Source: Mobula hypostoma
Taxonomy: Eukaryota
NCBI RefSeq assembly: GCF_963921235.1
Contig: NC_086108.1
Coordinates: 20,708,001 to 20,772,000, forward strand
DNA: 64,000 bases
Direction: 5' to 3'
Part shown: positions 2,311 to 50,789 of the stretch, in pieces
Layout of the letters: every line of letters begins with the position of its first letter
Numbering within the stretch: position 1 is the stretch's first letter
Position numbers and translations under genes: made by a program
The notes under the pieces: model-generated
What the model was told of the DNA's origin: nothing
Seen by the model: the letters and a program-made list of their open reading frames with translations, nothing else
Database searches by the model: none

Positions 2311-3082
2311 GCTCCATGCACCAATGTTTCATTTACTCAAACAACAATCTTTTGGCCTCAACTTCCAAAAGAACACAGTATTGCTCCAATGCAAAGAGAA
2401 ATTGCTAGATTCTTTGTCGTGCCTGGTGGTCTGTTCCTTTGCAGATACACATGGTTCAGTCAAAACATTCCTATGTCTCAGCCATACTTTGGGCTTCTTG
2501 CTGGAGCCTTCTGGGTCAAATCAATGCATACCAAAATTAATACCTGCTCCAAGATTTTCACTAATGAGTTCCCAAAGGCAACAGCAGGTTCTTTCTTCAA
2601 AATTACATTTTAATGGAAAGAATTAAATAAACACAATATCTATCTAACAGATAAGCAAAAACAGAACTTTTACCATTCATTTAACATCTATAAATGTTTC
2701 ACATTTGATGTCCTCTGATATTACTGAGCAGGATAAAATTTCAAAATGATCATGAACCACATACTCTGCTCAGATTCTATATAAGATAACTATTTGAAAA
2801 GTTCCATATTTTCTGGTAAAATGTGGTGACAGCACACACAACAACCAGTATCTGGCTATTTCATCACAGTTATGCGATGTATCAGTGTGCAAATTGACAT
2901 CTGTTCGAAAGCACTTTGGTTCAGTATTCCATTGGCTGAAAAATACTTGAGAATTCTGAAGTTCTGTAAAGACAGTTTTTAATGGGGAGCACGAGGAATT
3001 CTGCGGATGCTGGAAATTCAAGCAACACACATCAAAGTGCTGGTGAACGCAGCAGGCCAGGCAGCATCTCTAGGAAGAGGTA

Positions 3083-3120
3083 CAGTTGACATTTCGGGCC
3101 GAGACCCTTCGTCAGGACTA
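3083..3120 (-). ncRNA. Minimal type I hammerhead ribozyme motif (partly decayed)
   Basis: UAGUC CUGACGA A GGG-UCUCGG-CCC GAAA UGUC AACUG: core and stem II intact, mismatch in stem I. Confidence 0.65.
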
Positions 3121-6100: not shown

Positions 6101-6392
6101 TAACACCTTATTTTCCGTCTGGGTGGCCTCCAACCTGATGGCATGAACATTGACTTCTCTAACTTCCGCTAATGCCCCACCCTCCCCTCGTACCCCATCC
6201 GTTATTTATTTATTTATTCCTCTTCTTCCCCCCCCTCCCTGGGCCTCCTGTCCCATGATCCTCTCATATCCCTTTTGCCAATCACCTGTCCAGCCTTTGG
6301 CTCCATCCCTCCCCCTCCTGTCTTCTCCTATCATTTTGGATCTCCCCCTCCCCCTCCCCCTTTTCAAATCTCTTACTAGCTCTTCCTTCAGT

Positions 6393-6430
6393 TAGTCCTG
6401 ACGAAGGGTCTCGGCTGGAAACATCGACTG
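6393..6430 (+). ncRNA. Minimal hammerhead ribozyme motif (stem II damaged)
   Basis: UAGUC CUGACGA AGGGUCUCGGCUG GAAA CAUC GACUG. Confidence 0.6.
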
Positions 6431-8759
6431 TACCTCTTCCTATAGATGCCTGGCCTGCTGCGTTCACTGGCACGTTGTGTGTTGCTTTTAATTGGGAGCT
6501 CTCTTCTTGTGGGTAAGAGCAAATACACCACCACAAAGATGTGTGTCTATACTGATAGAAAATAACATTGCTATCATCTGTTCTATGCTAGGAATACAAA
6601 ACAATTGACAGCTATATTCAAAGGAGAGCAAAAGAGTTCTTTACATATTCATTACAGTGTCCCCTGTTCATATTTATTCCATAATTAATGTCAGTAATAA
6701 AAAAATTACTTGGCAATTTATCCCATTATGTTAGACATATAGCAATGCATACACCTGGCTGTATCTATTACACTGAAGTAGTATATATACACTTCAGATG
6801 TACCTTGTGTTGTATGAAATTTGGTGAACCTCCCAAGTGCTATACTTTTGAGGTACAATGACTTTTTTATTATAATACATTTGGGAAGCTTGCAACAGGT
6901 CTAACAAACACCACAGAAGTTACTGGTATTGCTGCAATACCTAAGACCTCTCATTTCAACAACATATGGCCTCCAAACTGATTCTTCTATTATTATGATC
7001 TAATAAATGTTCTTCAATTTACTAAATGCACAAAGTCCTGTAAGGTACGTTGTAAGCTATTTTAAACCAGAACATTCATGAATCCTTGAACAATATCAGT
7101 GAATTATAATAATCAGCTGTCTTCCTCTGAATTAATGAGCAACACAAGCAGTTAATTCCTGCTTATAATTAACTAGACAGCTTAATTTAGATGTATATTT
7201 TTCCCAAATAATTAATAGCTTGATCTTAAAAAAAATGTATTCAAATATATTAATGCTGGAATTTAATTTTAAACTATGCTCTTCTGAGAATATAAACAAA
7301 GAAACATATTGAAAATTAGAACAGCTATTTGCCAAGAACTAAAAAAGACTCTTGATATCTAATCTCAGGTCCCATCTATGCTTCTTTGCATTTAGGTTAC
7401 AATAAAACCTCTGATCATCTCCCTTGGATGGCAGTTATATCAGAACACACAGTAAACACTGTCAACCCATGGTAGATGCAGTGGGCAACTTCAATGTTCC
7501 ATTCTTAAGCTTACGTCTTAGGCATTTTAATAATTTGGGCCACAAAACCTACTAAAACAATGAGAATCCAATTAGGCACAAGTAGCTTTCATTATTCAGT
7601 AACGTGATACTTACTTACAACAGTATTCCAGTATATTGATAATTACATTCAATTCAGTATAAAAATAATTTAAGTTAAAAACTGAAGCTCGGCATTATGC
7701 AAATATGTTATCAATCAATGAAATGCTAAACACCACAGCAACTGTTGAGGAATTTTGTTTCGGCCTCAAATTTAAACATGGTTTAGAATCTGTGGTCAGT
7801 GCTGAAGTAAAAATACTTTAACCTCAAAGCAAACAATAAAGATTGAGCATTTTCTATCGGGGAGGGGGAACTCCCCTTTTCGGAGGATGTCGACAATTGG
7901 CTCAAATGGGATTGCAGATGCCCTGCAGTTTTAATATTATCATATCATCCAATCCCACCCCTGTATCCTTTTAAAATAACAAACATCAACATCATTACTA
8001 AATAAGAATTCCCCAAGTCTTAGTGAATTCTCCATCTTCTCGGTTCTATTTCATAAAATTGTCATCTCTATCATGCACTCCACTCTTCCCATTCTAACAA
8101 TCATGACAGAGCTTCTAAATATGATAAACCCACTCACTTAAACCATTTTCCCTTTTGGCTTAAAGTCCATGCCTTGCTACATTACTCCTGATTTTCCAAA
8201 GTCTCGTTAAAATGTACCTTAAACCAGCTTTCCCCAATATTTACGTGCTAATTTGTGCATCACCTGGAAACTCTTCTCAACATTAAGGCTGCATTCCACA
8301 CTGCATACAAAATAAGAAAAATATACTGGAAATGACTTGAAACAGGATAACAGACTGAACCAAAGTTTTCTAACATTTTTCCTGATCTTTTTGCATCCAC
8401 TAGTCAAAACATTATATAACACTTACTGGAAAGGCAAACTCAGGAAGTTTATTTTTAAACTGCAAACCAAATTATTGTAGTTTTCACTCATGATTCACAA
8501 TATTTTATCCCATTCCAACTGATATAAGGATTTTAAAATACCAAATGATGCATTATTAAAGATAAGAGTGGAAAAAAATTAAAAGGCCTTGAAAATCTTG
8601 TCAAAATATTTAAAAGCCAAATAGACAAACATTTTCTACATAAACTACTCCCTGGGTGGGTCAGCTGCATATTGCACAAAGGGAATAAAACTCTTTACAT
8701 AAATGAAGTTTCCATTGTCATCCATGGTGGTATAATTACAACCATTTTTTTGACATATA

Positions 8760-10382
8760 GAGTGCCTATAAAAAAGCATTCATACTCCTTGGAAGTTTTC
8801 ATGTTTTATCGTTTTACAACATTGAATCACAGTGGATTTAATTTGGCTATTTTGACACTGATCAACAGGAAAGACTCTTTTGTGTAAAGTGAAAACAAAT
8901 TTCAACAAATTGGTCTAAATTTATTACAATTATTAAACACAAAATAATTGATTGCATTATTACTCACCCCTTTATGTCAGTATTTAGTAGATGCACCTTT
9001 GGCAGTAAATACAGCCTTTAGTCTGAGTGGATAGGTCTCTATCTGCTTTGCACATCCAGTCACTGCAATTTTTTCCCATTCTTCTTTACAAAGCTGCTCA
9101 AGCTGTCAGATTGCATGGGGATTGTGAGACAGCAACCCTTTTCAAGTCCAGCCACAAATTCTCATTTGGATTGAAGTGTGGATTCTGACTTGGCCATTCC
9201 AGGACATTAACTTTGTCGTTTTAAGCTGCTCCTGTGTAGCCTTGGCATTATACTTGGGTCATTGTCTTGCTGGAAAACAAATCTTCTCCTAAGACCCAGC
9301 TCTCTTGCAGTCTGCATCAGGTTTTCCTCCAGGATTTCCCTGCATTTTGCTGCATTCATTTTTCCCTCCACCTTCACAAGCCTTTCAGGGCCTGCTACAG
9401 TGAAGCATCTTCACAGCATGATGCAGCCACCACCAAGCTTTACAATAGGGATGGTGTGTTTTTGATGATGTGCGGTGTTTGGCTTATACTAAACATCGCG
9501 TTTAGTTTGATGGCCAAAAAGCTCAATTTTGGTTTCATCAGACCATAGAACCTTCTTCCAGCTGACTTCAGAGTCTCCTACATGCCTTCTGGCAAACTGT
9601 AGCTGAGATTTCATGTGAGTTTTTTTTCAACAGTGGCGTTCACTTTGCCACTCTCCCATAAAGCTGCAACTGGTGAAGTGCCAGGCAACAGTTGTTGATG
9701 TACAGTGTCTCCCATCTCAGCCCTGAAGCCTATAACTCCTCCACAGGTGACATAGCTTTCTTGGTGGGCCTCCCTCACTAGTCTCCTTCTTGCACGGTCA
9801 CTCAGTTTTTGAGGACAGTCTGCTCTAGGCAGATTTACACTGTGCCATATTCTTTCTATTTCTTGATGACTGACTTAACTGTGCTCCAAGGGATATTCAG
9901 TGACTTGAAATTTCCTGATATTCATCTCCTGACTTGTGCTTTTCAATAATCTTTTTGTTGAGTTGCTTGGAGTGCTCTTTTGTCTTCATGGTGAAGATTT
10001 TGCCAGGATACTGACTCACCAGGAGTTAGACCTTCCAGATGCAGGTCTGTTTTTACTACAATCTTCTTGACTCCAAAAACAGATCTCCATTTAACTAATC
10101 AAGTGACTTCTAAAACTGACTATACCAGTGATGATTTGGTGTGTTATATTAAAGTGGATGAATACTTATTCAATCAATTATTTTATGTTTTATATTTGTA
10201 ATTTATATCACTTTGCAGAGATCTGTTTTCACTATGACATGAGTCTTTTCTGTTGATCAGTGTCAAAAAAAAAAGCCAGATTAAATCCACTGTGATTCAA
10301 TATTGTTAAACAATAAAACATGAAAACATCCAAGCAATGGGGGGTGGGGGGGAGGCATGGTGAATACTTTTTATAGGCACTG
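8760..10382 (-). mobile_element. Tc1-family DNA transposon, full length, pseudogenised transposase
   Basis: Long (~200 bp) inverted repeats starting agtgcctataaaaa / tttttataggcactg, flanked by TA; minus-strand motifs WKKVLWSDET, VKLGGGCIML*, FQQDNDPK, EWPSQNPHFNPNENLW. Confidence 0.92.
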
Positions 10383-15579: not shown

Positions 15580-17400
15580 CATAGAGCTATAGAACACCAC
15601 AGCACAGAACCAGACGCCTTAGCCCATCTAGTCTGTGCCAAACTATTAATCTGCCTAGTCCCATTGACCTGCACCAGTACCATACCCCTCCCATCCATGT
15701 ACCTGTCCAAATTTCTCATAAATGTTGAAATAAAACCTGCATCTACCACTTGCACTGGCATAAACACAAGAAAATCTACAGATACTGGAAATCTAAGCAA
15801 CAGACCCAAAATGCTGGAGGAACTCAGCAGGCCAGGCAGCATCTATCGAAAAGAGTAAATAGCAACGTTTCAAGCCAAGACCCTTCATCAGCACTCGCAC
15901 TGACAACTCATTTCACACTCTCACCACCCTCTGAGTGGAGAAGTTCTCCCTCATGTTCCCCTTAAATATTTCACCTTTCACCCTTAACCCATGACCTTTA
16001 ATTCTAGTCTCACCCAACCTCAGTGGAAACATGCTGTTTGCATTTACCCTTCCTAATTTTGTATACCTCTCAAAACTCCCATCATTCTTCTATGCTCTAT
16101 GAAATTAAGTCCTAATCTATTCAACCTTTCCCTATTACACAGGTCAAGTCTTGGCAACATTTGTCGAAATTTTGTTAAACTCTTTCAATCTTATTGACAT
16201 CTTTTCTGTGGGTACGTGACCAAGACTGCACACAATACTCTAAATTAGGACTCACCAACGTCTTGTACAACTTCAGCATAATATGCTAAAGTCTATACAC
16301 AATACTTTGATTTACGAAGACCAATCTGCCAAAGGCACTCTGGCATCCTATGTACCTGTAATAGCACTTTCAAGGAATTATGGATCTGTATTCCCAGATC
16401 CCTCTGTTCTACCGCACTCCTCAGTATCCTATTGCTCACTGTGTTAAGTCCCACCCTGGTTTGTCCTCCCAAAGTGCAATACCTCACACTTGTCTGTATT
16501 AGATCCTACTGTCCATTTTTCAGCTCATTTTTCCACCTGCTCTCGATTCTGCTGCAAGCTTTGATAGCCTTCCTCGTCATACCCCCCCCCACCCCCATTT
16601 TGGTGTCATACACAAATTTGCTGATCCAGTTTACCACATAATCATCCAGATCATTGATATGGATGATAAACATTAACGGACCCAACACCAATCCCCAAGG
16701 CACACCACTAATTACAAGCCTCCAGTAAGAGAGACAACCATCTACTACCACTCTCCTACAAAGCCAATGTCCAATCCAATTTATGACTCTTTATATATCT
16801 GAAAAAAAACTTTTTTACCTCATTTATTTTTACCAAATTTATTACCTCATTTTGAATGCTAAGTGACTGACCTTCTTGACCAACTTCTTATGCAGGACCT
16901 TGTCAAAGGCCTTGCTAAAGCCCATGCAGACAACATCCACTGCCTTTCCTTCATTACCTTTCCTTGTAACGTCCTCAAAAAAAACTCTGTAAGATTGGTT
17001 AGATTTTCTTACCGTGCACAAAGCTGTATTGACTTTCCCTAATCAGTCTGTGTCGATCCAAATACTTGTACATCTGGTCTCTTTGAATACTATCCAATAA
17101 TTTACCCATTGCTGATGTTAGGCTCGCCAGCCTATAATATCCTGGCTTATTCTTACATATTTTCTTAAACACTGGAACAACATCAGCTATCCTCTAATCC
17201 TTTGGTACCTCACCTGTGGATAAGGATGTTTTAAATATCTCTGCTAGGACCCTTCCAATTTTTGCACTAGCCTCACACAGGTTCCAAGGGAACTTATTGT
17301 CAGGCCTTGGAGTTATTCATCTTAATTTGCCTCAAGACAGCAAACACCTCTTCCTCTGTAATCTGTATATGATCCATGACCTCACTGCTGCTTTGCCTCA
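15580..17400 (-). mobile_element. Decayed CR1 LINE
   Basis: SGVPWGLVLGP, ISKFVYDTK, QRDLGIQIHNSLKV; CR1-type 3' tail at 15580-15720. Confidence 0.82.
15761..15891 (-). mobile_element. Solo Penelope pseudo-LTR starting at the hammerhead core
   Basis: Minus strand starts CTGATGAAGGGTCTTGGCTTGAAACGTT and ends with the tail; TSD cacttgcactggca 15747-15760 / cactcgcactgaca 15892-15905. Confidence 0.78.
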
Positions 17401-18826: not shown

Positions 18827-19025
18827 ATGAGCAGGCGCTTCACTATTGTCAACATCAGTGTAGCCAGATACTTGCACTGTACTTTGTTCGCCTCAACCCG
18901 ACACAAACTTCTACTCAAGATTTATCAACCGAAATTAACATTTACTGTTCTATTTCTATGCAAGCAACATACATCAAAGTTGCTGGTGAACGCAGCAGGC
19001 CAAGCAGCATCTATAGGAAGAGGCG

Positions 19026-19063
19026 CAGTCGACGTTTCAGGCCGAGACCCTTCGTCAGGACTA
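19026..19063 (-). ncRNA. Minimal type I hammerhead ribozyme
   Basis: UAGUC CUGACGA AGG-GUCUCGG-CCU GAAA CGUC GACUG: intact core, stem I, stem II and GUC cleavage triplet. Confidence 0.8.
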
Positions 19064-19355
19064 ACTGAAGGAAGAGTGAGTAAGGGATTTGAAAGCTGGA
19101 GGGGGAGGGGGAGATGCAAAATGATAGGAGAAGACAGGAGAGGGAGGGATAGAGCCGAGAGCTGGACAGGTGATAGGCAAAAGGGGATACAAGAGGATCA
19201 TGGGACAGGAGGCCTAGGGAGAAAGACGGGGGGGGGGTGACCCAGAGGATGGGCAAGAGGTATATTCAGAGGGACAGAGGGAGAAAAAGGAGAGTGAGAG
19301 AAAGAATGTGTGCATAAAAATGAGTAACAGCTGGGGTACGAGGGGGAGGTGGGGC

Positions 19356-20628
19356 CTAGCGGAAGTTAGAGAAGTCAATGTTCATGCCATCAGGTTGGAG
19401 GCTACCCAGACGGAATATAAGGTGTTGTTCCTCCAACCTGAGTGTGGCTTCATCTTTACAGTAGAGGAGGCCGTGGATAGACATGTCAGAATGGGAATGG
19501 GATGTGGAATTAAAATGTGTGGCCACTGGGAGATCCTGCTTTCTCTGGCGGACAGAGCGTAGATGTTCAGCAAAGCGGTCTCCCAGTCTGCGTCGGGTCT
19601 CACCAATATATAAAAGGCCACATCGGGAGCACCGGACGCAGTATATCACGCCAGTCGACTCACAGGTGAAGTGATGCCTCACCTGGAAGGACTGTTTGGG
19701 GCCCTGAATGGTGGTAAGGGAGGAAGTGTAAGGGCATGTGTAGCACTTGTTCCGCTTACACGGATAAGTGCCAGGAGGGAGATCAGTGGGGAGGGATGGG
19801 GGGGACGAATGGACAAGGGAGTTGTGTAGGGAGCGATCCCTGCAGAATGCAGAGAGAGGGGGGGAGGGAAAGATGTGCTTAGTGGTGGGATCCCGTTGGA
19901 GGTGGCGGAAGTTACGGAGAATAATATGTTGGACCCGGAGGCTGGTGGGGTGGTAGGTGAGGACCAGGGGAACCCTATTCCTAGTGGGGTGGTGGGAGGA
20001 TGGAGTGAGAGCAGATGTACGTGAAGTGGAGGAGATGCGTTTAAGAGCAGAGTTGATAGTGGAGGAAGGGAAGCCCCTTTCTTTAAAAAATGAAGACATC
20101 TCCCTCGTCCTAGAATGAAAAGCCTCATCCTGAGAGCAGATGCGGCGGAGACGGAGGAATTGCGAGAAGGGGATGGCGTTTTTGCAAGAGACAGGGTGAG
20201 AAGAGGAATAGTCCAGATAGCTGTGAGAGTCAGTAGGCTTATAGTAGATATCAGTGGATAAGCTGTCTCCAGAGACAGAGACAGAAAGATCTAGAAAGGG
20301 GAGGGAGGTGTCGGAAATAGACCAGGTAAACTTGAGGGCAGGGTGAAAGTTGGAGGCAAAGTTAATAAAGTCAACGAGTTCTGCATGCGTGCAGGAAGCA
20401 GCGCCAATGCAGTCGTCGATATAGCGAAGGAAAAGTGGGGGACAGATACCAGAATAGGCACGGAACATAGATTGTTCCACAAACCCAACAAAAAGGCAGG
20501 CATAGCTAGGACCCATACGGGTGCCCATAGCTACACCTTTAGTTTGGAGGAAATGGGAGGAGCAAAAGGAGAAATTATTAAGAGTAAGGACTAATTCCGC
20601 TAGACGGAGCAGAGTGGTGGTAGAGGGG
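19356..20628 (-). pseudogene. 5'-truncated Penelope ORF: RT C-terminal half + Cys linker + GIY-YIG endonuclease
   Basis: GVAMGTRMGPSYA, RYIDD, YYKPTD, CKRNKCYTC, VIYCVRCSRCGLLYIGET...RFAEH; uninterrupted to the stop but lacking the N-terminal RT motifs. Confidence 0.9.
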
Positions 20629-21884
20629 TGCTCCGTCTAGCGGAATTAGTCCTTACTCTTAATAATTTCTCCTTTTGCTCCTCCCATTTCCTCCAAACTA
20701 AAGGTGTAGCTATGGGCACCCGTATGGGTCCTAGCTATGCCTGCCTTTTTGTTGGGTTTGTGGAACAATCTATGTTCCGTGCCTATTCTGGTATCTGTCC
20801 CCCACTTTTCCTTCGCTATATCGACGACTGCATTGGCGCTGCTTCCTGCACGCATGCAGAACTCGTTGACTTTATTAACTTTGCCTCCAACTTTCACCCT
20901 GCCCTCAAGTTTACCTGGTCTATTTCCGACACCTCCCTCCCCTTTCTAGATCTTTCTGTCTCTGTCTCTGGAGACAGCTTATCCACTGATATCTACTATA
21001 AGCCTACTGACTCTCACAGCTATCTGGACTATTCCTCTTCTCACCCTGTCTCTTGCAAAAACGCCATCCCCTTCTCGCAATTCCTCCGTCTCCGCCGCAT
21101 CTGCTCTCAGGATGAGGCTTTTCATTCTAGGACGAGGGAGATGTCTTCATTTTTTAAAGAAAGGGGCTTCCCTTCCTCCACTATCAACTCTGCTCTTAAA
21201 CGCATCTCCTCCATTTCACGTACATCTGCTCTCACTCCATCCTCCCACCACCCCACTAGGAATAGGGTTCCCCTGGTCCTCACCTACCACCCCACCAGCC
21301 TCCGGGTCCAACATATTATTCTCCGTAACTTCCGCCACCTCCAACGGGATCCCACCACTAAGCACATCTTTCCCTCCCCCCCTCTCTCTGCATTCCCCAG
21401 GGATCGCTCCCTACACAACTCCCTTGTCCATTCGTCCCCCCCATCCCTCCCCACTGATCTCCCTCCTGGCACTTATCCGTGTAAGCGGAACAAGTGCTAC
21501 ACATGCCCTTACACTTCCTCCCTTACCACCATTCAGGGCCCCAAACAGTCCTTTCAGGTGAGGCATCACTTCACCTGTGAGTCGACTGGCGTGATATACT
21601 GCGTCCGGTGCTCCCGATGTGGCCTTTTATATATTGGTGAGACCCGACGCAGACTGGGAGACCGCTTTGCTGAACATCTACGCTCTGTCCGCCAGAGAAA
21701 GCAGGATCTCCCAGTGGCCACACATTTTAATTCCACATCCCATTCCCATTCTGACATGTCTATCCACGGCCTCCTCTACTGTAAAGATGAAGCCACACTC
21801 AGGTTGGAGGAACAACACCTTATATTCCGTCTGGGTAGCCTCCAACCTGATGGCATGAACATTGACTTCTCTAACTTCCGCTAA
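20629..21884 (+). pseudogene. 5'-truncated Penelope ORF, mirror copy
   Basis: 418 aa open frame with the same motifs; two amino-acid differences noticed against the left arm. Confidence 0.9.
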
Positions 21885-22177
21885 TGCCCCACCTCCCCCT
21901 CGTACCCCAGCTGTTACTCATTTTTATGCACACATTCTTTCTCTCACTCTCCTTTTTCTCCCTCTGTCCCTCTGAATATACCTCTTGCCCATCCTCTGGG
22001 TCACCCCCCCCCCGTCTTTCTCCCTAGGCCTCCTGTCCCATGATCCTCTTGTATCCCCTTTTGCCTATCACCTGTCCAGCTCTCGGCTCTATCCCTCCCC
22101 CTCCTGTCTTCTCCTATCATTTTGCATCTCCCCCTCCCCCTCCAGCTTTCAAATCCCTTACTCACTCTTCCTTCAGT

Positions 22178-22215
22178 TAGTCCTGACGAAGGGTCTCGGC
22201 CTGAAACGTCGACTG
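22178..22215 (+). ncRNA. Minimal type I hammerhead ribozyme
   Basis: tagtc ctgacga agggtctcggcct gaaa cgtc gactg; predicted cleavage after C22210. Confidence 0.8.
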
Positions 22216-24103
22216 CGCCTCTTCCTATAGATGCTGCTTGGCCTGCTGCGTTCACCAGCAACTTTGATGTATGTTGCTTGAATTTCCAGCATCTGCAGAA
22301 TTCCTGTTGTTTTTATTTCTATGCAACATGGCTTTCCTCCAACTCCTGCTCACCTTGTTGGGGGCTGTAAAGTACCCCGTAGTGTAATAGCTATATTATT
22401 CCTTCTTTAACCAAATGGATTGTCCTCATTACCACCTTAGGGAAAATCTAGCTCTCCAGTAATGAAATATCAACTTTTAATTTTGCAACTTACTTTTACC
22501 TTTCTAGTTTTAACATCTGTCCGGCAACAAAAAGCTTATTCATGTAATTTTTCTGTTTCACTTAACCCCACATTATAACATTTCATCAATTATTTATGTT
22601 TGCATCTCATGAAATATATTCATCACATTGTATTTTAAACCTGCAGCTAGTTGCCTTAGTTTGTTTTGTAGCTTCGTATATTCCTGCTTGACACAAATCC
22701 ATATTGCGCAGCCACTGACAGTGTAAAGTCAGTTTCAGTTCATACCTTACAGCATCAATTCAATGTACTGTCAGTGTGGTATAAATACCAGTAAACTTTC
22801 CTAAAGGACACAATCCCAGTTCGATGTACAAACTGTCTGTCTAATGGTGGGGGTGCATTCCCAAAAAAATTATCAATATCATGTTGACAAGAAGTACTAA
22901 TTTACTTTAATTTTTCACAAATTTTCTGACAGTGATATTTTTTATTGAATAACTCAGATCTTTTGGTAATGATTTGTGAATTTCCCAAAGATAAATTTCT
23001 GTTACCCCATTACTGCAACACTGGGGTCACCTATATAAGGAATTACTCACCATATTTGATTATCAAATGATAAGACTTCTCTGAACAACAGTAAAAATAA
23101 GAGTTCTTGAAAGTAAAGAAACAATATCATTAAAGGAATGAACTTCACATGACCTACGATTAAGTTCCCTGATAGAACATGTAAAAAGCCACTATGTTTT
23201 GGGCAATCTTAGTCTGCAATTGACTTGTCTGAATAAGGAGGCACTCTTGCTTTCAGTAGACTATCTGGGCACACAATTACAGCACAGAAACAGGCCATCT
23301 CGGCCCTTTTAGTCCGTGCTGAATGCTTACTCTCACCTAGTCCCATCTACCTGCACTCAGCCCATAACCCTCCATTCCTTTCCTGTCCATATACCTACTC
23401 AATTTTTTTTAAATGACAAAATCGAACCTGCCTCTACCACTTCTACTGGAAGCCTGTTCCACACAGCTACCACTCTCTGAGTAAAGAAGTTCCCCCTCGT
23501 GTTACCCTTAAACTTTTGCCCCTTAACTCTCAACTCATGTCCTCTTGTTTGAATCTCCCCCACTCTCAATGGAAAAAGCCTATCCATGTCAACTCTAACT
23601 ATCCCCCTCATAATTTTAAATACCTCTATCAAGCCCCCCCCCCCCCCAACCTTCTATGCTCCAAAGAATAAAGACCTAACTTGTTCAACCTTTCTCTGTA
23701 ACTTAGGTGTTGAAACCCAGGTAACATTCTAGTAAATCTCCTCTGTACTCTCTCTATTTTGTTGACATCTTTCCTATAATTCGGTGACCAGAACGATACA
23801 CAATACTCCAAATTTGGCCTCACCAATGCCTTGTACAATTTTAACATTACATCCCAACTCCTATACTCAATGCTCTGATTTATAAAGGTCAGCATACCAA
23901 AAGCTATCTTCAGCACCCCATACACATGAGATTCCACCTTCAGGGAACTATGCACCATTATTCCTAGATCACTCTGTTTTACTGCATTCCTCAAAGCCCT
24001 ACCATTTAACATGTATGTCCTATTTTGATTAGTCCTGCCAAAATGTCGCACCTTACACTTATCAGCATTAAACTCCATCTGCCATCTTTCAGCCCACTCT
24101 TCT

Positions 24104-24310
24104 CACAACATGTTGGGGAAGTCAGCAGGTCCGCAGCATCCGTGGAAATGATGAGTCAATGTTTCGGGCTGGAACCCTTCGTCAGGAAATGGGGTTATGA
24201 CCCGAAACGTTGACTGATCGTATCCACGAATGCTGCCCGACCTGCTGACTTCCTCCAGCATGTTGTGAGTGTTGCTTTGACCCCAGCATCTGCAGAGTAT
24301 TTTGTTTACG
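24104..24310. mobile_element. 207 bp Penelope-derived foldback element with hammerhead-like motifs on both strands
   Basis: Inverted arms cacaacatg...gcagcatccgtgga / tccacgaatgctgc...catgttgtg; tail on the right; TSD agcccactcttct 24091-24103 / agcctactcttct 24311-24323. Confidence 0.82.
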
Positions 24311-24672
24311 AGCCTACTCTTCTAACTGGCCTAAATCTCTCTGCAAGCTTTGAAAACCTGCTTCATTATCCACAATGCCACCTATCTTAGTATCATCTGC
24401 CTACTTACTAATCCAATTTACCACACCATCATCCAGATCATTAATGTATATGACAAACAACATTGGACCCAGTACAGATCCCTGAGGCAAACCCCTAGTC
24501 ACCGGCCCCCAACCTGACAAACAGTTATCCACCACTACTCTCTGGCATCTCCCATCCAGCCACTGCTGAATCCATATTGAACCTTCCTAACTAACCTTCA
24601 GTGTAGAACCTTGTCAAAGGCCTTACTGAAGTCCACATAGACAACATCCACTGCTTTACCCTCGTGAATTTT

Positions 24673-27600
24673 CCATAAGACCATAAGACAAAGAAGCAGA
24701 AGTAGGCCATTCGGCCCAACAAGTCTGCTCTGCCATTTTGTCATGAGCTAATCCATTTTATCCTATTTAGTCCCACTGCCCCGCCTTCTCACCATAACCT
24801 TTGATGCCCTGGCTACTCAGATACCTATCAATCTCTGCCTTAAAGACACCCAGTGACTTGGCCTCCACTGCTGCCCGTGGCAACAAATTCCATAGATTCA
24901 CCACCCTCTGACTAAAAAATTTTTTTCACATTTCTGTTCTGAAAGGGTGCCCTTCAATCCTGAAGTCATGCCCTCTCGTACTAGACTCCCCCATCATGGG
25001 AAACAACTTTGCCACATCCACTCTGTCCATGCCTTTTAACATTCGAAATGTTTCTGAGGTCTCCCCTCATTCTTCTAAACTCCAAGGAATATAGTCCAGG
25101 AGCGGACAAACGTTCCTCATATGTTAACCCTCTCATTCCTGGAATCATTCTAGTGAATCTTCTCTGTACCCTCTCCAACGTCAGCACATCCTTTCTTAAA
25201 TAAGGAGACCAAAACTGCCCACAGTACTCCAAGTGAGGTCTCACCAGCGCCTTATAGAGCCTCAACATCACATCCCTGCTCCTATACTCTATTCCTCTAG
25301 AAATGAATGCCAACATTGCATTCGCCTTCTTCACTACCGACTCAACCTGGAGGTTAACTTTAAGGGAATCCTGTATGAGGACTCCCAAGTCCCGTTGCAT
25401 CTCAGAACTTTGAGTTCTCTCCCCATTTAAATAATAGTCTGCCCGTTTATTTCTTCTGCCAAAGTGCATAACCATACACTTTCCACCATTGTACTTCATT
25501 TGCCACTTCTCTGCCCATTCTTCCAATCTATCCAAGTCTCTCTGCAGACTCTCCGTTTCCTCAGCACTACCGGCCCCTCCACCTATCTTCGTATCATCAG
25601 CAAACTTAGCCACAAAGCCATCTATTCCATAATCCAAATCGTTGATGTACAATGTAAAAAGAAGCGGCCCCAACACTGATCCCTGTGGAACACCACTGGT
25701 AACTGGCAGCCAACCAGAATAGGATCCCTTTATTCCCACTCTTTTTTTCTGCCAATCAGCCAACGCTCTATCCACGTATGTAACTTTCCTGTAATTCCAT
25801 GGGCTCTTATCTTGTTAAGCAGCCTCATGTGTGGCACCTTGTCAAAGGCCTTCTGAAAATCCAAATATACAACATCCACTGCATCTCCCTTGTCTAGCCT
25901 ACTGGTAATTTCCTCAAAAAATTGTAATAGGTTTGTCAGGCAGGATTTTCCTTTAAGGAATCCATGCTGAGTTCTGCCTATCTTATCATATGCCTCCAGG
26001 TACTCTGTAACCTCATCCTTGACAATCGACTCCAACAACTTCCCAACCACCGATGTCAAGCTAACAGGTCTATAATTTCCTTTTTGCTTCCTTGCCCCCT
26101 TCTTAAATAGCGGAGTGACATTTGCAATCTTCCAGTCTTCCAGAACCATGCCAGAATCTATCGACTTTTGAAAGATCATCGCTAATGCCTCCGCAATCTC
26201 CACAGCTACTTCCTTCAGAACTCGAGGGTGCATTCCATCTGGTCCAGGAGATTTATCGACCTTTAGCCTATTCAGCTTCCTGAGTACTTTCTCTGTCGTA
26301 ATTGTGACTGAGCACACTTCTCTTCCCTGCCACCCTTGAGTGTCCGGTATCCTGCTGTCTTCCTCAGTGAAGACTGATGCAAAATACTTGTTCAGTTCCT
26401 CTGCCATCTCCTCATCTCCCATTACAATTTCTCCAGTATCATTTTCTATCGGTCCTATATCTACTCTCACCTGTCCTTTACTCTTTATGTAATTGAAAAA
26501 GCTTTTAGTATCCTCTTCGATATTATTTGCTATTCCTTTCATAGTTAATCTTTTCTCTCTTAATGACCTTCTTGGGTTTCCTTTTGTAAGGTTTTAAAGC
26601 CTTCCCAATCCTCTGTCTTCCCACTAATTTTTGCTTCCTTGTATGCCCTCTCCTTAGCTTTAACTTTGGCTTTGACTTCTCTTGTTAACCACGGTTGCAT
26701 CCTTTTTCCACTCGAATATTTCTTCTTTTTTGGAATACACCTGTCTTGCACATTCCTCATTTCTCACATAAACTCCAGCCACTGCTGCTCTGCCGTCTTT
26801 CCCGCCAGTGTCTCTTTCCAGTCAACTTTGGCCAGTTCCTCTCTCATGCCACTGTAGTTTCCTTTACTCCACTGAAACACCGGCACATCAGATTTCGGCT
26901 TCTCTTTTTCTAATTTCACAGTGAACTCAATCATGTTATGATCACTGCCTCCTAAGGGTTCCTTCACCTCAATCTCTCCAATCACCTCCGGTTCATTACA
27001 CAATACCCAATCCAGTACAGCCAATCCCCTAGTGGGCTCAACAACAAGCTGTTCTAAAAAGCCATCTCGCAGACATTCTACAAATTCTCTCTCTTGAGAT
27101 CCAGTGCCGACCTGATTTTTCCAATCTACTCACATGTTAAAATCCCCCACAATTATCATAACACTGCCCTTCTGACAAGCCTTTTCTATTTCCAGTTGTA
27201 ATTTGTAGTCCACATCCCTGCAGCTGTTTGGAGGCCTATAAATAACTGCCATCAGGGTCCTTTTACCCCTGCTATTCCTTAGCTCAACCCATAAAGATAC
27301 TGCAGCTTCCGATCCTATATCACCTCTTTCTAATGATTTAATATCATTTCTTACCAATAAATCCACGCCTCCCCCTCTGCCTACCTTCCTATCCTTCTGA
27401 TACACCATGTATCCTTGGACGTTCAGCTCCCAGAGACATGCATTCTTTAGCCAGGTCTCAGTGATGGCCACAATATCATACCTGCCAATCTGTAGCTGTA
27501 CAACAAGATCATCCACTTTATTTCTTATGCTGCGTGCATTTAAGTACAACACCTTAAGACCAGTATTTGATACTTTTTGCTTTGATTTCACTGCAACTTT

Positions 27601-28140
27601 ATTGCACTGCAACTCATCCCAATGGCTACACATTTGCCCCATCACCTGCCTGTCTTTCCTGACATCTTTACTGCTCACTATCTTAGATTTATTTCTGTTT
27701 TCCCCTTCCTCCGCTCTATCATTCCGGTTCCCATCCCCCTGCCAAATTAGTTTAAACCCTCCCTAACAGCTCTATTAAACTTTCCTGCCAGGATATTGGT
27801 CCCCTTCGGGTTCAGGTGTAACCTGCCCTTTTTGAACAGGTCATACTTCCCCCAGAAGAGATCCTAATTATCCAAGAATCTGAAGCCCTGCCCCCTACGC
27901 CAGTCTCTCAGCCACGCATTCATCTGCCTGATCCGACTACTCTTGCCCTCGCTAGCACGTGGCACAGGTAGCAATCCCGAGATTACTACCCTGGAGGTCC
28001 TGCTTCTCAGCTTCCTTCCTAACTCCTGGAAATCTCTCTTCAGGACCTCCTCCTTTGTCCTATTTATGTCATTGGTACCAACACGTACCAAGACAACTGG
28101 CTGCTCACCCTCCCCCTTTAGAATATTCAGGACCTGATCC
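24673..28140 (-). mobile_element. Relatively young CR1 LINE: end of ORF1 (SGNH esterase-like) plus ORF2 (APE endonuclease + RT) with a few frameshifts
   Basis: VGTNDI...VVISGLLP; YLNARS, ITETWL, GDFN, SDHNMI, YRPVSLTS, YLDFQKAFD, GVPQGSVLGP, KFADDTK; (TCTTATGG)n tail. Confidence 0.93.
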
Positions 28141-29904
28141 TATAACCTCTTCTAAAAAAATTCAATAAGATTTGTCAAATATGACCTTCCACGCACAAAT
28201 CCATGTTGACTGTTCCTAATCAGACCGTCTATCCAGATAATTATATATACCATCTCTAAGAATACTTTCCATTAATTTAGCCACCACTGACATCAAACTT
28301 ACAGGCTGATAATTGATAGGTTTACTCTTAGGACCCTTGGTTAAACAATGAAACACATGAGCAGTACGCCAATCCTCCGGCACCATCCCTGTTTCTAATG
28401 ACATTTTGAAATATTTATGTCAGAGCCCCTGCTATTTCTACACTAACTTCCCTCAAGGTCCTAGGGAATATCCTGTCAGGACCCAGAGATTTATCCACTT
28501 TTATATTCCTTAAAAGCGCCAGTACTTCCTCTTCTTTAACCATCACAGTTTCCATAACTACCCTACTTGTTTCCCTTACCTTACACAGTTCAATATCCTT
28601 CTTAGTGAATACCGAAGAAAAGAAATTGTTTAAAATCTCCCTCATCTCTTTTGGCTCTGCACATAGCCGTCCACTCTGATTCTCTAAGGGACCAATTTTA
28701 TCCCTCACTATCCTTTTGCTATTAATATAACTGTAGAAACCCTTTGGATTTATTTTCATCTTACTTGCCAAAGCAACCTCATCTTCTTATAGCTTTTCTA
28801 ATTTCTTTCTTAAGATTCTTTTTACATTTTTTATATTCCTCGAGCACCTCATTTACTCCAAGTTGCCCATATTTATTGTAGATTTCTCTCTCTTTCCGAA
28901 CCAAGTTTCCAATATCCCTTGAAAACCATGGCTCTCTCAAACTTTTAACCTTTCCTTTCAAGCTAACAGGAACATAAAGATTCTGTACCCTTTAAATTTC
29001 ACCTTTGAATGACCTCCATTTCTCTATTACATCCTTCTCATAAAACAAATTGTCCCAATCTACTCCTTCTAAATCCTTTCGCATCTCCTCAAAGTGAGTC
29101 TTTCTCCAATCAAAAATCTCAACCCCGGGTCCAGTCCTATCCTTCTCCATAATTATATTGAAACTAATGGCATTGTGATCATTGGATCCTAAGTGTTCCC
29201 CAACACATACCTCCGTCACCTGACCTATCTCATTCCCTAACAGGAGATCCAACACTGCCCCTTCTCTAGTTGGTACTTCTATGTATTGCTTCAAAAAACT
29301 ATCTTGCACACATTTTACAAACTCCAAACCATCCAAAAGTCCAAACGTAATAGTTACGTGCAAAAGGTGTGCGGGGAAAAAAAGGCTGTTGCACAAAATG
29401 GAATGCAGACTATGTTCAAGCTTGCAGAGCTTTAATACTTTGAAAACGTATTCCCACCTGACAGGAGCTCATGTTGTGCAAATTTTGACAGTAAAGAATG
29501 TTTAAATTAAAAGCTTTCAATTGAAACAATTCTACCATTTAGCATGATTAATGGTAAACAGCAGTAGTTTGAATGCCTTTGACATGCAGTAGTTTATTTC
29601 AGTTCAGGGTCAGGTAGAGATCAGGGTAAAAAGTTGTAAGTTCAGCAGGATGTGTGCTTAGTTTCTACTTAAGTGCAACACTTAACGAAAATATTATTTT
29701 ATCAATTAGTAAGTAGTAATGCTGCTTGAATTTATGAGTTTTATGTATATTTTGAAAAATATTTGCAAGTCAATTTGAAAGATATTGTCACTTGACAATT
29801 AAGTGGTTAAACTGGAATATACAGAATATAATTAACTTTCTAGAATATTTTATATTTGCTTGGCAACACACACTAAAGAACTAATAAAAAATCTTCTTTT
29901 ACAG

Positions 29905-29953: not shown

Positions 29954-30788
29954 ATGAATTCATTCAGCTGGACTTTGTGTCTGTTGTTAATTAGTTTCAT
30001 GACTACAGGAGGCAAGAGGGAACAACATCAAGCCAGAACCAACATTGCAGTACATTCTGTTGTTCATAACCGCTACAGACGTTCACCTAATAGCAGCAAC
30101 AAATGTTCCTACACGTTCTTGGTCCCAGATCAAAGGATAACTGGTCCAATCTGTGTCAGTTCAAAGGGGCCAGAAAGGAATTATAATGGAATAACTAGGA
30201 TGGATGTGGAGGACTTAAAGGACATTATGTCCAAACAGAAACGGCAAATTGAAAACCTTGAACTCTTAGTGGAGGTGGATGGCGGCGTTGTAAATGAGGT
30301 AAAATTGCTACGAAAGGAGAGTCGGAATATGAATTCACGTGTAACACAGCTTTATATGCAGCTTCTCCATGAGATTATTCGTAAAAGGGACAACTCACTG
30401 GAAATTTCACAGCTAGAGAACAAAGTTCTTAATTCCACAGCTGAAATTCTGCAAATGGCCACGAAGTATAGACAACTGGAACAGAAGTATGCAGTACTGT
30501 CTACTCTTGTTAATAATCAGTCTGTAGTCATAACTAAATTGGAGCAGGAATGCATTCGTAGCCTTACTCCAAGAGAATATGAGCCACCACCCCTTGTACA
30601 AGTTGTACCACAGTCCATACCACGTAGCAGGCAATACCAGAGCAATTTGTTTGGTAGTAATGAAATACAAAGAGATCAAAATCCTGCATTTACACGAGAA
30701 CGGGGGCTTCGCTCCAGAGCATCCTTGCATGAACCTTCTCCTACAACTGCCAGTTCTTTGGAATCATCAGTTACCGAAGAGCCCGATG
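29954..30788 (+). CDS. ANGPTL1: Angiopoietin-related protein 1, first coding exon (signal peptide + coiled coil)
   Basis: KCSYTFLVPDQRITGPICV, ITRMD, NEVKLLRKESRNMNSRVTQLYMQLLHEIIRKRDNSLE, LVNNQSV, PPLVQVVPQ, NEIQRD match ANGPTL1 better than ANGPTL2 from memory; phase-1 donor G|gtaggt at 30789. Confidence 0.92.
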
Positions 30789-32716
30789 GTAGGTTTATAT
30801 AATTTTTAAATGGTAGGTAATTGTACAGCTCTGTACTAAAATTCTATTTAATTCACAATATCCAGAGCAGAGATTACAAATACTGCATACCACACTGTTG
30901 GATTTACTTAATACAAATTAATTTCCAACTCCTTCACTTAATTCATGCCATTATAACCTCTTCTCTTTTCAAACTGATCCACACAATTAATTAAAAGCAA
31001 CTGCAACGCTTTGCATGATGTTCTCATTTAGAAAATAAGATTATTTCTTACTGAAGCTGAAAAATCTTTAAATAGCACTTAAATGTGAAAATATATGACA
31101 ATATATTTTTTGAAGACCAGGGGAATCTGATTTTTAATAAACCCAGATAATCTCTCGGCATTAAAGGCAGATGTTACTGTTAATAGTTAATCTTAAGTAC
31201 TGATGATAAATAAACAGGTAAAAAGAAAGAAACCCTTGCAAATGGATAAATAATTTGTCTGGTGTGTAGCAGGTAAGTTTATATTTAGGGTAATAGGGCC
31301 ATATATATCTACTTTACATTTGTGCTTTCTTATAGACATTAATCTCATCAGTAAGGTTTAAGTAATGTATGCTCAACTCAATGCAAATTTCGATAACTAA
31401 GAAAGTGATTTCAAAAAACTATTTTGCTATTTTACTATCTCCCTTGGTTTTCCAGTTTGGCAAACAGAAGTTTAAGATCAAAGCAGCAGGAAACAGCAAA
31501 TGCTTTAATGAAAAAAATTAAAAGCTATCAGCAGAAATGTAATATTGATCACTATACAGATAATAGCGCCTGAGTCATTATGGGTTTTTGAGTAGACCTC
31601 TAGCTCAAGAGTATTATCCAACACAAAAGGAACGAGTGGGACAGCTGTTCAACCAATCAGATTGAAAGCTCTTTAATGAAGCAGAGTATAAATTAGACTG
31701 TATAAATGCCTCATAAATTATATTACAGAAAGTTTAAAAAAATGAGGGAACAAGAGAAGAAATTGAGGAAAACATGAAGGTAATTTTTTTTCTAAAATTT
31801 CCAAAACTAGTTAACAAGGATTGAAACTCCACATTTAATTTAAATTCACAATACTAGAAGGTGACCGACAGCAATTCAGATTTTTATGCTCCCTTGCACA
31901 TAGCCTTTGTTGCTGTGCAACTGGAATAAAGACAGAGCAGTTAGTACGTACTTATTTCTAAAGGCGTTGAGATTTCTATTTTGCACGAGGGTAAAAATGT
32001 TGGCCGAAATAGCCTGCAGTAAAAATGCCAGACCAATTCGTATTCTCATTCATGACAGAATACAGAAAACTATTACTCATTGTACATTTTTCCCCACAAA
32101 TGTGTTATTTCCAGATTTATCCAAGGAATGATGAGGTGACAGGGCTGCCATCAGTTACAGAAGCCGTCAGTGCATTCTTCCAAAGTAAATCTATGTGATA
32201 GGCATATTCTAAAACATAATAGTGGAAAAACACAGATGAGAAGTTTGCCACCAATCAAATACTAGCACCAAGGTTACTTTCCATAACTGGCCCTGTTGAT
32301 TTCCCCTGGACCTTCTTAATAAATTCAGTCAATAATGCTAGGTGGGGAGATTGAAATCATTAATTTCTTCAACCACAAGTGAAAGAACTGCATCTTCACA
32401 TACTTTTTAAAAGAATTTAGAAATTACATCCACATTTTGTGAATTATTTCACTGCCAAATATTACAACATTTTGTTTTCTTTATATTTTTTTAGCATTTC
32501 AAGGAAAGTATTAAGTGTGTTTGCATAAGCCAAGTGCTTCAATAAATTTGCACTGGTTTAAAATGCCAAATGCTGCAATCTCCAAGACTGGAAGAAGAAA
32601 AGTTTGATTTGAAAATTAGTTATACTGTAAACAATGAGTTGACATTAAGCAATTAATTTTGTTCAATTATGGTCAAACAATTTGCTTATCCAACAAGATG
32701 GGGAAAAAAGGCTGTA

Positions 32717-34328
32717 CAGGTGTCCCCCGCTTTTTGAACATTCGTTTTACAAAACCTCGCTGTTATGAAAGACCTACATTAGTTACCTGTTTTCACTAAC
32801 AGAAGGTGTTTTCACTGCTACCAAAAAAGGCAGCGTGCACCCCGAGCAGCCAGGCTCCTCCCCCGGAACTGCATTCCACCCGCCATTGCTGAAACACGTG
32901 CCTGTGAGCATCTCTGCATTTTGTTGATTTATTCTGAGCATCCGTTAGCAAGAAGAGTTCTAAGGTATCCAAAAAGCCTAAAAGAGCTCGTAAGGGTGTT
33001 ACACTTAGCGTAAAACTATACATAATTAAGTGTTTCAATCGTGGTGAACGAAGCAAAGACAAAGTGAGTTTGGCTTGTGGAAGCTGATGAAGATGATGTT
33101 GAAGAGGTTTTGGCATCCCATGACCAAGAACTGATAGATGAAGAGCTGATGCAATTCGAAGAGGAAAGGATAACAATCGAAACTGAATGCAGTAGCGAAC
33201 TGTGAAGTCGTCCAGGAACTGAACAGGAAGCAACTGCGTGAGATTTTCGCTGCAATGATTGCAACTTTAATTTTGAAAGGGTACGTAGCTTTAGGGCATA
33301 TTTGCAAGATGGTTTGAGTGCTTACAAAGAACTGTATGATAGAAAAATGCGCGAGGCTAAGCAGTCAAGCATACTGTCATTTTTCAAGCCTTCTACATCG
33401 GCCACAGCAGACAATGAACCTCGACCTTTGACAACGAGGCAGGCAGACATAGAAGAAGATAACCTGCCTGCCCTGATGGAAACAGACGACGATGAGATGA
33501 CACCCCAGTTTCCCACCACCCCAACCTCCAGGCCACCAACCGATACCCATCCGTGAAGCATGCAGCGGTAGCCGGGACGCACTCAGCACGTCTTTAAGAA
33601 AAAAGCTGAAATAAACAAGCTAATTAATTAGGTGCCACCCGGCACGTAAATGTCGGCCCAGATCAGAGGCGACTGCCGACTGCATCACCTCTGATCTGGG
33701 CCAACATTTACGTGCTCGGCGGCACCTGATTAATTAGCTTGTTTATTTCGGCTTTTTTCTTAAAGACGTGCTGGGTGCGTCCCGGCTACCGCTGCATGCT
33801 TCGCGGATGGGTATCGGTTGGCGGCCTGGAGGTTAGGGTCCACTGCACCACCCCAACCTCCAACGACTCAGCCTAACACACCATCATTAGTATGCTCGGC
33901 GCTGTCTTCCCAATACCGGTAAGTGATACTACACTGTACATACATTATTTCTACTTTTATAGGCTGTGTATTTTTACATGTTATTTGGTAGATTTGGCAG
34001 CCTCATAGCTTAAAGGTTACTGGAGAGAGTGTTTCTGCCGAGAGCGCTTGCATGAGATTTTCGCTATCGAGAACAGTGCGGCAATGATTGTAGAAAAGTA
34101 TTTCTACTTTATATAGGCTGTGTATTTATCATATTATCCCTGCTTTTACTATATGTTACTGTTATTTTAGGTTTCATGTGTTATTTGGTAGGTTATTTTT
34201 TGGGTCTCCGAACGCTCACAAGTTTTTCCCCATATAAATAAATGGTAATTGCTTCTTCACTTTACGACATTCCAGTTTACGAACCGTTTCATAGGAAGGC
34301 TCTACCTTCGTATGGCGGGGGAAACCTG
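32717..34328 (+). mobile_element. Non-autonomous Tigger/pogo DNA transposon
   Basis: TIRs caggtgtcccccgc / gcgggggaaacctg with TA on both sides; N-terminal KRARKGVTLSVKL HTH remnant joined to acidic C-terminal DVEEVLASHDQEL remnant. Confidence 0.88.
33518..33839. repeat. Internal palindrome, ~155 bp arms, 12 nt loop
   Basis: 33518-33672 is the reverse complement of 33685-33839 with scattered mismatches. Confidence 0.92.
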
Positions 34329-36159: not shown

Positions 36160-37131
36160 CACGTAATTGTTGGCGGCACCTAATTAATTAGATGGTTTAT
36201 TTTGGCTTTTTTCTTAAAGATGTGCTGTGTGCCTCCCGGCTACTGTTGCATTCTCCGTGAATCGGTACAGTATCTGTCCGGGGCCTGGGGATTGGGGCGG
36301 TGGGACACGGGGGTGTCATCTCGTCATCGATCAGGGCAGGCAGCTCATCTTCTCCTATGACTGCCCGCCTCGATGTTGAAGGTCGAGGTTCATCATCTGC
36401 TGTGGCTGATGTGGAAGCCTTGCTTGACTGCTGAGCGTCGCGCTCTTTTCTATCATACAGTTGTTTGTAAGGCCTCAAACCATCCTGCAAATATCCCCTA
36501 AACCTACGTACCCTTTCAAAATTAAAGTCGTACTTTATCATTGCAGCGAAAATCTCACACAGTTGCTTCACATTCATTTCGCTACTGCATTCGGTTTCGA
36601 TTGTTATCCTTTCCTCTTCCAATTGCATCAGCTCTTCATCTATCAGTTCTTGGTCATGGGATGCCAAAACCTCTTCAACATCATCTTTGTCAGCTTCCAC
36701 AAGCCAAATTCACTTTGTCCTTGCTTCGTTCACCACGATCGAAATGCTTAATTATGTCTAGTTTTACGCTAAGCGTAACACCCTTATGAGCTCTCTTAGG
36801 CTTTTCTGATACCTTAGGACACATCTTGTTAACGGATGCACAAAATAAATAGAGATAAAGCACAGATGCTCACAGACACAGTTCAAAGCTATGGCGGCTT
36901 GATGCTGAGATGCTGAGTGTCGTTCTCGGGGTAGGAGCTTGGCAGCACACTACCTCTATAAATGGCCTGCTGCAAAACAAACGCTGAATGCTATTTTCGC
37001 TTTTTGCCTTTTTTCGTAAAAGCGAAAATCCTCTTCGGATTTCTTTCAGTTAGCGAAAATAGGTACTAATGTAGGCCTTTCGTAAAAGCGAAGTGGCGTA
37101 AAGCGATCTTTTGAAAAGCGGGGGATACCTG
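36160..37131 (-). mobile_element. Second Tigger/pogo derivative, truncated
   Basis: One TIR gcgggggatacctg+TA at 37118-37133; ORF 36197-36700 homologous to 33075-33556. Confidence 0.85.
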
Positions 37132-42526: not shown

Positions 42527-43392
42527 ATAGAAACATAGAAACATAGAAAATAGGTGCAGGAGTAGGCCATTTGGCCCTTCGAGCCTGCACCGCCATTTAT
42601 TATGATCATGGCTGATCATCCAACTCAGAACCCAGCCTTCCCTCCATACCCCCTGACCCCTGTAGCCACAAGGGCCATATCTAACTTCCTTTTAAACATA
42701 GCTAATGAACTGGCCTCAACAGTTTGCTGTGGCAGAGAATTCCACAGATTCACCACTCTCTGTGTGAAGAAGTTTTTCCTAACCTCGGTCCTAAAAGGCT
42801 TCCCCTCTATCCTCAAACTGTGACCCCTCGTTCTAGACCTCCCCAACATCGGGAACAATCTTCCCGCATCTAGCCTGTCCAATCCCTTTAGGATCTTATA
42901 CGTTTCAATCAGATCCCCCCTCAATCTTCTAAATTCCAACGAGTACAAGCCCAGTTCATCCAGTCTTTCTTCATATGAAAGACCTGCCATCCCAGGAATC
43001 AATCTGGTGAACCTTCTTTGTACTCCCTCTATGGCAAAGATGTCTTTCCTCAGATTAGGGGACCAAAACTGCACACAATACTCCAGGTGTGGTCTCACCA
43101 AGGCCTTGTACAACTGCAGTAGTACCTCCCTGCTCCTGTACTCGAATCCTCTCGCTATAAATGCCAGCATACCGTTCGCCTTTTTCACCGCCTGCTGTAC
43201 CTGCATGCCCACTTTCAATGACTGGTGTATAATGACACCCAGGTCTCGTTGCACCTCCCCTTTTCCTAATCGGCCACCATTCAGATAATAATCTGTTTTC
43301 CTATTTTTGCCACCAAAGTGGATAACTTCACATTTATCCACATTAAATTGCATCTGCCATGAGTTTGCCCACTCACCCAACCTATCCAAGTC
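42527..43392 (-). mobile_element. Young 5'-truncated CR1 LINE
   Basis: Open 257 aa ORF2 C-terminus; (TTCTATGT)n tail; near-identical to 54460-55327. Confidence 0.93.
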
Positions 43393-43649
43393 TTGCATTG
43401 CAAGTACCTTTCTGCTGTATTAAGGGATGAGAACAAATGCAAATTACCAATGTACCATTATGATTCTAATTTTCTCTTTCTTATACCACCATACATCTGT
43501 TTCTTTCTCAGTCCTCACTTGTTGAAGAGGCTGCCTGTTAAACTCACTATTCCCTTTGGTCCCAAATTCCCTTAAAACTTACCAGTTCACTGTTGCAGAA
43601 AGTTACAAAGTACAAACTATTGCCGTGGTCTAACTAATAGCATATAGAA

Positions 43650-48795: not shown

Positions 48796-48962
48796 AGCTG
48801 ATGATACGTTAGAAGAATCTTTTGCATCACAGAGAAATTCAACATGGAAACAATTCTTCTGCCAACAGAGCTTGTATCAACCATCAAAAACCCATCTAAC
48901 ATTAACTCCAGCATAATTCCCATCAACATGTCCTCTCCTACTGCCCACCCCATTCTACCATT

Positions 48963-50730: not shown

Positions 50731-50789
50731 TCCATGCACTAGAGGCAATTTATGGTGGCAAATTATCCGATCAATTCACATATTTTGGG

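Follow-up and report, generated by a model that had tools for sequence, protein, structure and literature searches.

A 3.3-kb palindrome formed by one head-to-head insertion of an abundant Penelope-like element

Organization of the locus

The window, that is, the whole 64-kb stretch of DNA that was analysed, contains a 3.3-kb palindrome and an exon starting at 29954 whose best match among proteins of 495–2000 aa is Callorhinchus ANGPTL1 (79%). The original prediction had placed the palindrome ~7.6 kb upstream of an ANGPTL1 coding exon, and the exon start agrees with this distance; no other ANGPTL1 exons were found within the 64-kb window. The Callorhinchus match suggests that the host is a cartilaginous fish. 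In a self-comparison of the whole window, the palindrome appears as a single inverted match of 3327 columns (18958–22283). Direct alignment of the arms (18961–20611 against 20629–22280) gives 1645 identical columns out of 1651, with 6 mismatches and 1 gap; counted outward from the centre, the first 585 bp of the stem contain no difference. The unit is composed of the following parts.

18951..18963, + strand: left TSD copy, 13 bp; its last 3 nt also belong to the left arm, a microhomology on the tail-less side
18961..20611, − strand: left arm, a Penelope-like element truncated at its 5' end, with the tail-less 3' end facing outward
19025..19061, − strand: left-arm core motif of a minimal hammerhead, identified by motif alone, no Rfam match
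19356..20628, − strand: left-arm open frame covering the C-terminal half of the protein, with RT motifs B and C, the thumb, the CX4CxxC linker and GIY-YIG but neither a start nor RT motif A
20612..20628, − strand: spacer, 17 nt, native element sequence prolonging the left arm
20629..22280, + strand: right arm, 5'-truncated Penelope-like element; its 5' end is 17 nt shorter than that of the left arm
20634..21884, + strand: right-arm open frame, 416 aa to the stop, equivalent to residues 493–902 of the 904 of homologue P0128
22180..22216, + strand: right-arm core motif of a minimal hammerhead, identified by motif alone, no Rfam match
22281..22313, + strand: one-sided 'tail', 33 nt; usual 3' terminus of the family near 22312
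22314..22326, + strand: right TSD copy, 13 bp, exact match to the left copy

Arms of ~1650 bp with about seven differences had been described from the letters alone, and the alignment recovers them at the same coordinates. The 17-nt spacer had likewise been taken as continuing element sequence, and it is indeed identical to the native sequence near 4550–4566 in an older copy in the window; it neither pairs with itself nor shares microhomology with the beginning of the right arm. The predicted 13-bp TSD around the whole unit is exact, and in random pairs of 60-bp windows at least 13 shared bases occurred in 2 of 5000. At its left end, where arm and TSD overlap by 3 nt, the palindrome stops at the tail-less terminus of the family, like the copies at 6487 and 63602. 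The 33 nt of element sequence at the right end have no left counterpart, and the outer flanks of the arms differ from each other and are not mirror images.

Contig evidence for a single insertion

We compared four contig sets (X1, X5, X9 and X15) with 20596–23260, a region covering the spacer, the right arm and the right flank. X9 and X15 barely reach the flank, and the information on the site comes from X1 and X5 only. In X1 (organism A, possibly the source sample), a 1008-letter contig matches 22293–23260 with 0 differences through the tail, the TSD and the flank, with 21 letters on the element side against the tool's 31-letter bar. In X5 (organism B, a related organism), the match of a 1312-letter contig begins at the first TSD base (22314), after 326 letters that fail to match the element; organism B apparently retains the empty site. 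Loose contig ends accumulate at 22312 (198 in X1 and 158 in X5), showing that the tail of the family usually ends there. The family is very abundant: X1 contains 261,468 matching records, and the summed depth, which is not a copy number, is 5 × 10^5 to 9 × 10^6 in the arm against 17–39 in the flank.

The claim that the unit is a single insertion and no fold-back artefact is upheld by the TSD, the differing flanks, the one-sided tail, the right junction in X1 and the X5 match beginning at the TSD. Mirror-reading of one arm could not have produced the tail, the TSD and the unlike flanks, which argues against the artefact. The 3.3-kb palindrome is thus confirmed as real, one head-to-head insertion of an abundant Penelope-like element.

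Identity and coding capacity of the element

Each arm carries one uninterrupted stop-to-stop frame of 426 codons. In the 416-aa frame, the RT motif YIDD lies at residue 62, a CX4CxxC linker at residue 283, between RT and EN, and GIY-YIG at 319–336. A CxxC sits between GIY and YIG, with two histidines further on, in the pattern of a CCHH zinc finger. The match to Pfam PF01541 (GIY-YIG) has an E value of 2.8e-4 and 21.6 bits, just below the cut-off of 22.6. A search among longer proteins returned 239 matches, the best of which (P0121) shows 55% identity over 99% of the query and carries an RT domain (PF00078); the same linker and nuclease pattern is present in 110 of the 120 homologues listed (239 matches in all). 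A search for solved-structure relatives gave 0 matches, and a metagenome scan gave 13 distant loci with 26–37% identity.

The EN+ (C-terminal EN) class of Penelope-like elements has a PLE-type RT followed by a C-terminal GIY-YIG with a CCHH zinc finger (PMC8557442), and by these definitions the predicted protein is that of a C-terminal-EN Penelope-like element. The excerpted text of the same paper gives a CX2-5CxxC linker between RT and EN as the mark of Neptune and describes Penelope/Poseidon as lacking it. The CX4CxxC linker therefore rules out the Penelope/Poseidon clade and points to Neptune, an assignment made by the linker. In vertebrates, only Neptune and Poseidon are reported in one survey, as excerpted (bioRxiv 10.64898/2026.07.22.740005). 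We also considered a Foldback/MITE DNA transposon or a DIRS element, which should carry a DDE transposase along with fixed terminal inverted repeats, or else a tyrosine recombinase; both were rejected, as the sole Pfam match is GIY-YIG, the ends are unequal owing to the tail, and the arm length differs between copies.

The arms start at residue 493 of the 904 of the full-length homologue P0128, and RT motif A (at 455) is lost. Since both begin after this motif, neither arm can encode an active protein. The complete ORF and the upstream pLTR of an autonomous copy are missing in both arms; judged by its coding content, the unit is a dead truncated copy that cannot be autonomous.

A minimal-hammerhead core motif lies near all five ends of the focal subfamily in the window (two outer ends of the palindrome and three others), and such minimal motifs have been described in Penelope-like elements (PMC4209133). 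The Rfam scan gave no hammerhead, only 3 hairpin-driven microRNA matches, all under the gathering score, and the MFE fold of the core monomer differs from the hammerhead fold. At the truncation point, with the old copy as a stand-in, no convincing RNA structure was found (z about −2.0 against mononucleotide shuffles).

Divergence of the arms and age of the insertion

At 8 of 9 sites, chosen for a high share of the alternative letter, the two arms agree on the minority letter, as would be expected if they derive from one template or one subfamily. These letters are subfamily-level variants (6–50% of X1 depth) and not private. Private changes, which had been noted in each arm, are present in both on comparison with the older copy. 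The arms are separated by 5 or 6 events, the likelier reading being 4 on the left and 2 on the right. The ambiguity concerns 21396–21397. Polarizing this site by the old copy alone was dropped; Arg or Lys occupies this site in 110 of the 120 listed homologues, and position 21397 is G in 92% of X1 depth. One change per arm at a CpG, giving 6 events and not 5, is the likelier history.

The divergence per arm is 0.15–0.18% (95% range 0.05–0.40%), and the flank differs between organisms A and B by 7 substitutions in 946 letters, or 0.37% per lineage; the insertion probably postdates the A/B split. At the mutation rate of the epaulette shark (7 × 10^-10 per generation; PMC10587355), the arm divergence corresponds to about 2–2.6 million generations, and the extreme bounds still give at least about 350,000. 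This calculation uses the rate of another species and treats RT errors, polishing errors and arm-to-arm conversion as absent. The description of the insertion as young is therefore retained in the relative sense, as probably after the split, but the 5–6 arm changes imply many generations and point to an insertion that is hundreds of thousands of generations old or more, not a fresh one.

Comparison with other head-to-head insertions

The window contains three head-to-head units, two of which are near-symmetric (the focal palindrome and 24091–24326). The older copy at 2977–6499 has a 3-kb tailed arm opposite a 0.5-kb tail-less arm and a 14-bp flanking repeat with 1 mismatch. The unit at 24091–24326 is a mini-palindrome of an older subfamily, with arms at 24102–24177 and 24192–24269 and the tail on the right; its 14-nt loop begins with 10 nt of native antisense sequence, and its 16-bp repeat (2 mismatches, carried without a chance control) overlaps the tail-less arm by 5 nt. 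Its geometry equals that of the focal unit: the loop belongs to the strand whose start is the tail-less end with the microhomology, and the tail is opposite. This second near-symmetric unit lies only 1.8 kb from the focal palindrome. The TSD length varies between copies: it is 13 bp in the focal unit, whereas three others have 10 bp, 14 bp (1 mismatch) and 16 bp (2 mismatches).

An inverted 5'-truncated copy and a one-sided tail of 30–40 bp are the signature of Penelope insertions (PMC8557442, Craig et al. 2021, Fig. 2), and the focal unit shows the traits of the class: the inverted 5'-truncated copy at the 5' end, the tail at one end and a TSD of variable length. It resembles the elements in the excerpted part of that study in its RT with C-terminal CCHH GIY-YIG, 5' truncation, inverted 5'-end copy, one-end tail (33 nt here) and, by motif match, a hammerhead core near the 3' end. 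Unlike in those elements, both focal copies are truncated almost equally within the RT region; thus, the whole 3.3-kb unit is palindromic, without a full ORF or upstream pLTR. In the Adineta vaga elements Pen2, Pen2a and Pen3a, junction palindromes were interpreted as self-priming (PMC3846280). They share with the focal unit the head-to-head layout and a TSD around the whole unit (8–10 bp, compared with 13 bp here), and they are also tailed, with an optional 31-bp tail; their inverted part, however, is the pLTR of about 200 bp, with palindromes or overlaps of 15–38 bp, whereas the focal arms measure 1.65 kb.

The Anolis carolinensis Poseidon element PAc (PMC11167929) shares two 3' ends parted by the tail and an AT-rich target. 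Two-strand priming was seen in vitro for PAc, whereas we infer it for the focal element; the CX4CxxC linker is missing from Penelope/Poseidon, the clade of PAc; and the tail-less end has a 3-nt microhomology in the focal unit, whereas PAc begins without homology. As far as the excerpt of that study goes, the joining of the two strands is left unexplained. Rearranged Penelope copies in transgenic Drosophila melanogaster also contain long inverted repeats made by the element, as here (PMC3681739). The head-to-head architecture, palindromic junction included, is already published, and the focal unit is a clean, large example. Among titles and abstract openings of papers outside subscription, we found none on Penelope/Neptune palindromes in sharks or rays.

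Proposed mechanism and alternatives

We favour, with a probability of roughly 0.6, a single Neptune-type integration in which the strand from the tail-less end folds back and then pairs with the tailed cDNA. The GIY-YIG domain would cut both target strands 13 nt apart, and the left target end would prime at the tail-less site and the right target end at the tail site. Two cDNAs would result, both antisense; as these cannot anneal, one strand must turn round. The left cDNA would halt inside the RT region (20628) and turn back 17 nt earlier, and the turned-round sense strand would pair with the right cDNA, after which host repair would seal the unit. Turn-round and pairing would thereby couple the arm lengths. 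In vitro, the Poseidon protein cut both strands of the target and extended each of them; AT-rich DNA was preferred, and reverse transcription began at two RNA sites bounding the tail (PMC11167929, in part); this support comes from a Poseidon element, whereas the focal element is Neptune-type. Fold-back of the tail-less strand is favoured because the native loop lies on that strand in both the focal unit and the mini-palindrome. Against it, the 3' end of the loop is unpaired at the fold point, so that there is no classic base-paired snap-back primer, and the arms of 2977–6499 are very unequal, the longer of them carrying the tail.

The centre without microhomology or pairing would suit a different course, in which one 5'-broken RNA was copied twice from two start sites, both cDNAs stopped at or near the break and, with no fold-back, an RT template jump or end joining linked their ends. 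The alleles common to both arms, the in vitro extension of both strands and the predicted dimer of the protein (PMC11167929, in part) agree with such joining, yet it leaves the 14–17 nt excess of the tail-less arm in both symmetric units unexplained (n = 2), and PMC3846280, in its excerpted discussion, takes junction palindromes as self-priming. We regard it as possible but rather unlikely.

It is improbable that an unequal head-to-head insertion was later symmetrized by break-induced fold-back repair or arm-to-arm gene conversion, or that two chance truncations fell 17 nt apart. Unequal units do exist, as at 2977–6499, inverted repeats are homogenized by template switching (PMC8604942, in part), and the extreme abundance of the family makes rare coincidences likely to occur; these readings nevertheless conflict with another near-symmetric unit 1.8 kb away, an intact TSD and tail, and frames that are both open, as soon after insertion. 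Least probable is a fold-back or missed-adapter read that doubled one real arm. The centre and the left junction are without read support (no listed piece spans 20596–23260, and the centre joint is absent from the 15 joints listed beside 1083 further ones, which speaks neither way), and polishing errors could account for some arm differences, but the unmirrored flanks, exact TSD, tail on one arm and native spacer stand against such a read, as does a left end at the same tail-less terminus as in the copies at 6487 and 63602.

Extending the fold-back of the tail-less strand beyond this locus is more tentative. Symmetric palindromes might be routine in cartilaginous-fish Neptune integration, with centres that record strand joining, the cDNA from the tail-less end turning over a loop of 14–17 nt without a base-paired primer; they might then persist for 10^5–10^6 germline generations, and intronic ones might supply hairpin RNA against the family. 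We hold this generalization to be doubtful. On its own the locus carries little weight: the copy is dead, its family is very abundant and its arrangement is in print. As part of a set, it bears on how Penelope-like elements join two primed strands, since the long arms offer enough sites to reveal a single-template origin, and the polarity of the loop lends itself to counting across the genome. For shark and ray assemblies, kilobase palindromes are not necessarily fold-back artefacts.

Stability and possible hairpin RNA

The original prediction had pointed to the instability of long palindromes with tiny spacers, which goes too far where the spacer is 17 nt long. In yeast, once Alu inverted repeats are separated by at least 9 bp, fork arrest disappears and breaks fall by about 80% (PMC8053094, in part; see also PMC7999016), although some breaks remain. 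The 17-nt loop may explain the persistence of the palindrome, by extrapolation across kingdoms and arm lengths.

Human ANGPTL1 lies antisense within RALGPS2 (PMC6371847, in part). On the minus strand, no RasGEF or PH match was found in 124 of the 164 stop-free frames of at least 40 aa, taken outside self-matching repeats, a search that can miss short exons. Host read-through across the unit is plausible if the RALGPS2 nesting is conserved. Such RNA would fold into a 1.65-kb hairpin, a candidate substrate for siRNA production or editing; in Drosophila melanogaster, siRNAs map to the inverted regions of Penelope copies (PMC3681739, in part).

Other Penelope-like copies in the window

The Penelope-like mini-palindrome at 24091–24326 has the same geometry as the focal unit, the 3.3-kb palindrome at 18951–22326. 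Its arms of about 77 bp enclose a loop of 14 nt, the tail (the element sequence that the focal unit has at one end only) lies at the right side, and the flanking repeat of 16 bp contains two mismatches. This mini-palindrome is older. The head-to-head unit at 2977–6499, with about 92% identity to the focal arms, is also older. Its arms are unequal, the tailed arm measuring 3 kb and the tail-less arm 0.5 kb; the 14-bp repeat has one mismatch, and the reading frame is broken many times.

A solo tail-less 3′ end of 110 bp (63592–63729) belongs to the same family as the focal arms, with 97% identity. It has a 10-bp TSD on either side, and its 5′ junction carries eight additional nucleotides that resemble the downstream flank. 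The more diverged Penelope-like 3′ ends, both with the tail, are as follows.

15762–15895, 76% identity
10483–10528, 85% identity

Other repeats and the ANGPTL1 exon

The 322-bp palindrome at 33518–33839 (arm identity 92%) is not Penelope-like; it is related to 36172–36897, in which the frame 36197–36709 may resemble the end of a Tigger/pogo transposase. A Tc1/Sleeping Beauty-type remnant at 8788–10334 has inverted ends of 192 bp with 80% identity, and Pfam returned HTH_SB (E = 7e-7) and a weak DDE_3 match. Degraded pieces of LINE-type RT and endonuclease sequence, presumably from families such as CR1/L2, are numerous at 23600–29500, 42500–43400, 48300–51400 and 52000–61600.

29954–30799, ANGPTL1 coding exon (N-terminal 282 aa)

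No fibrinogen-domain exons of ANGPTL1 lie within the 64-kb window; thus, the intron following this exon exceeds 33 kb.
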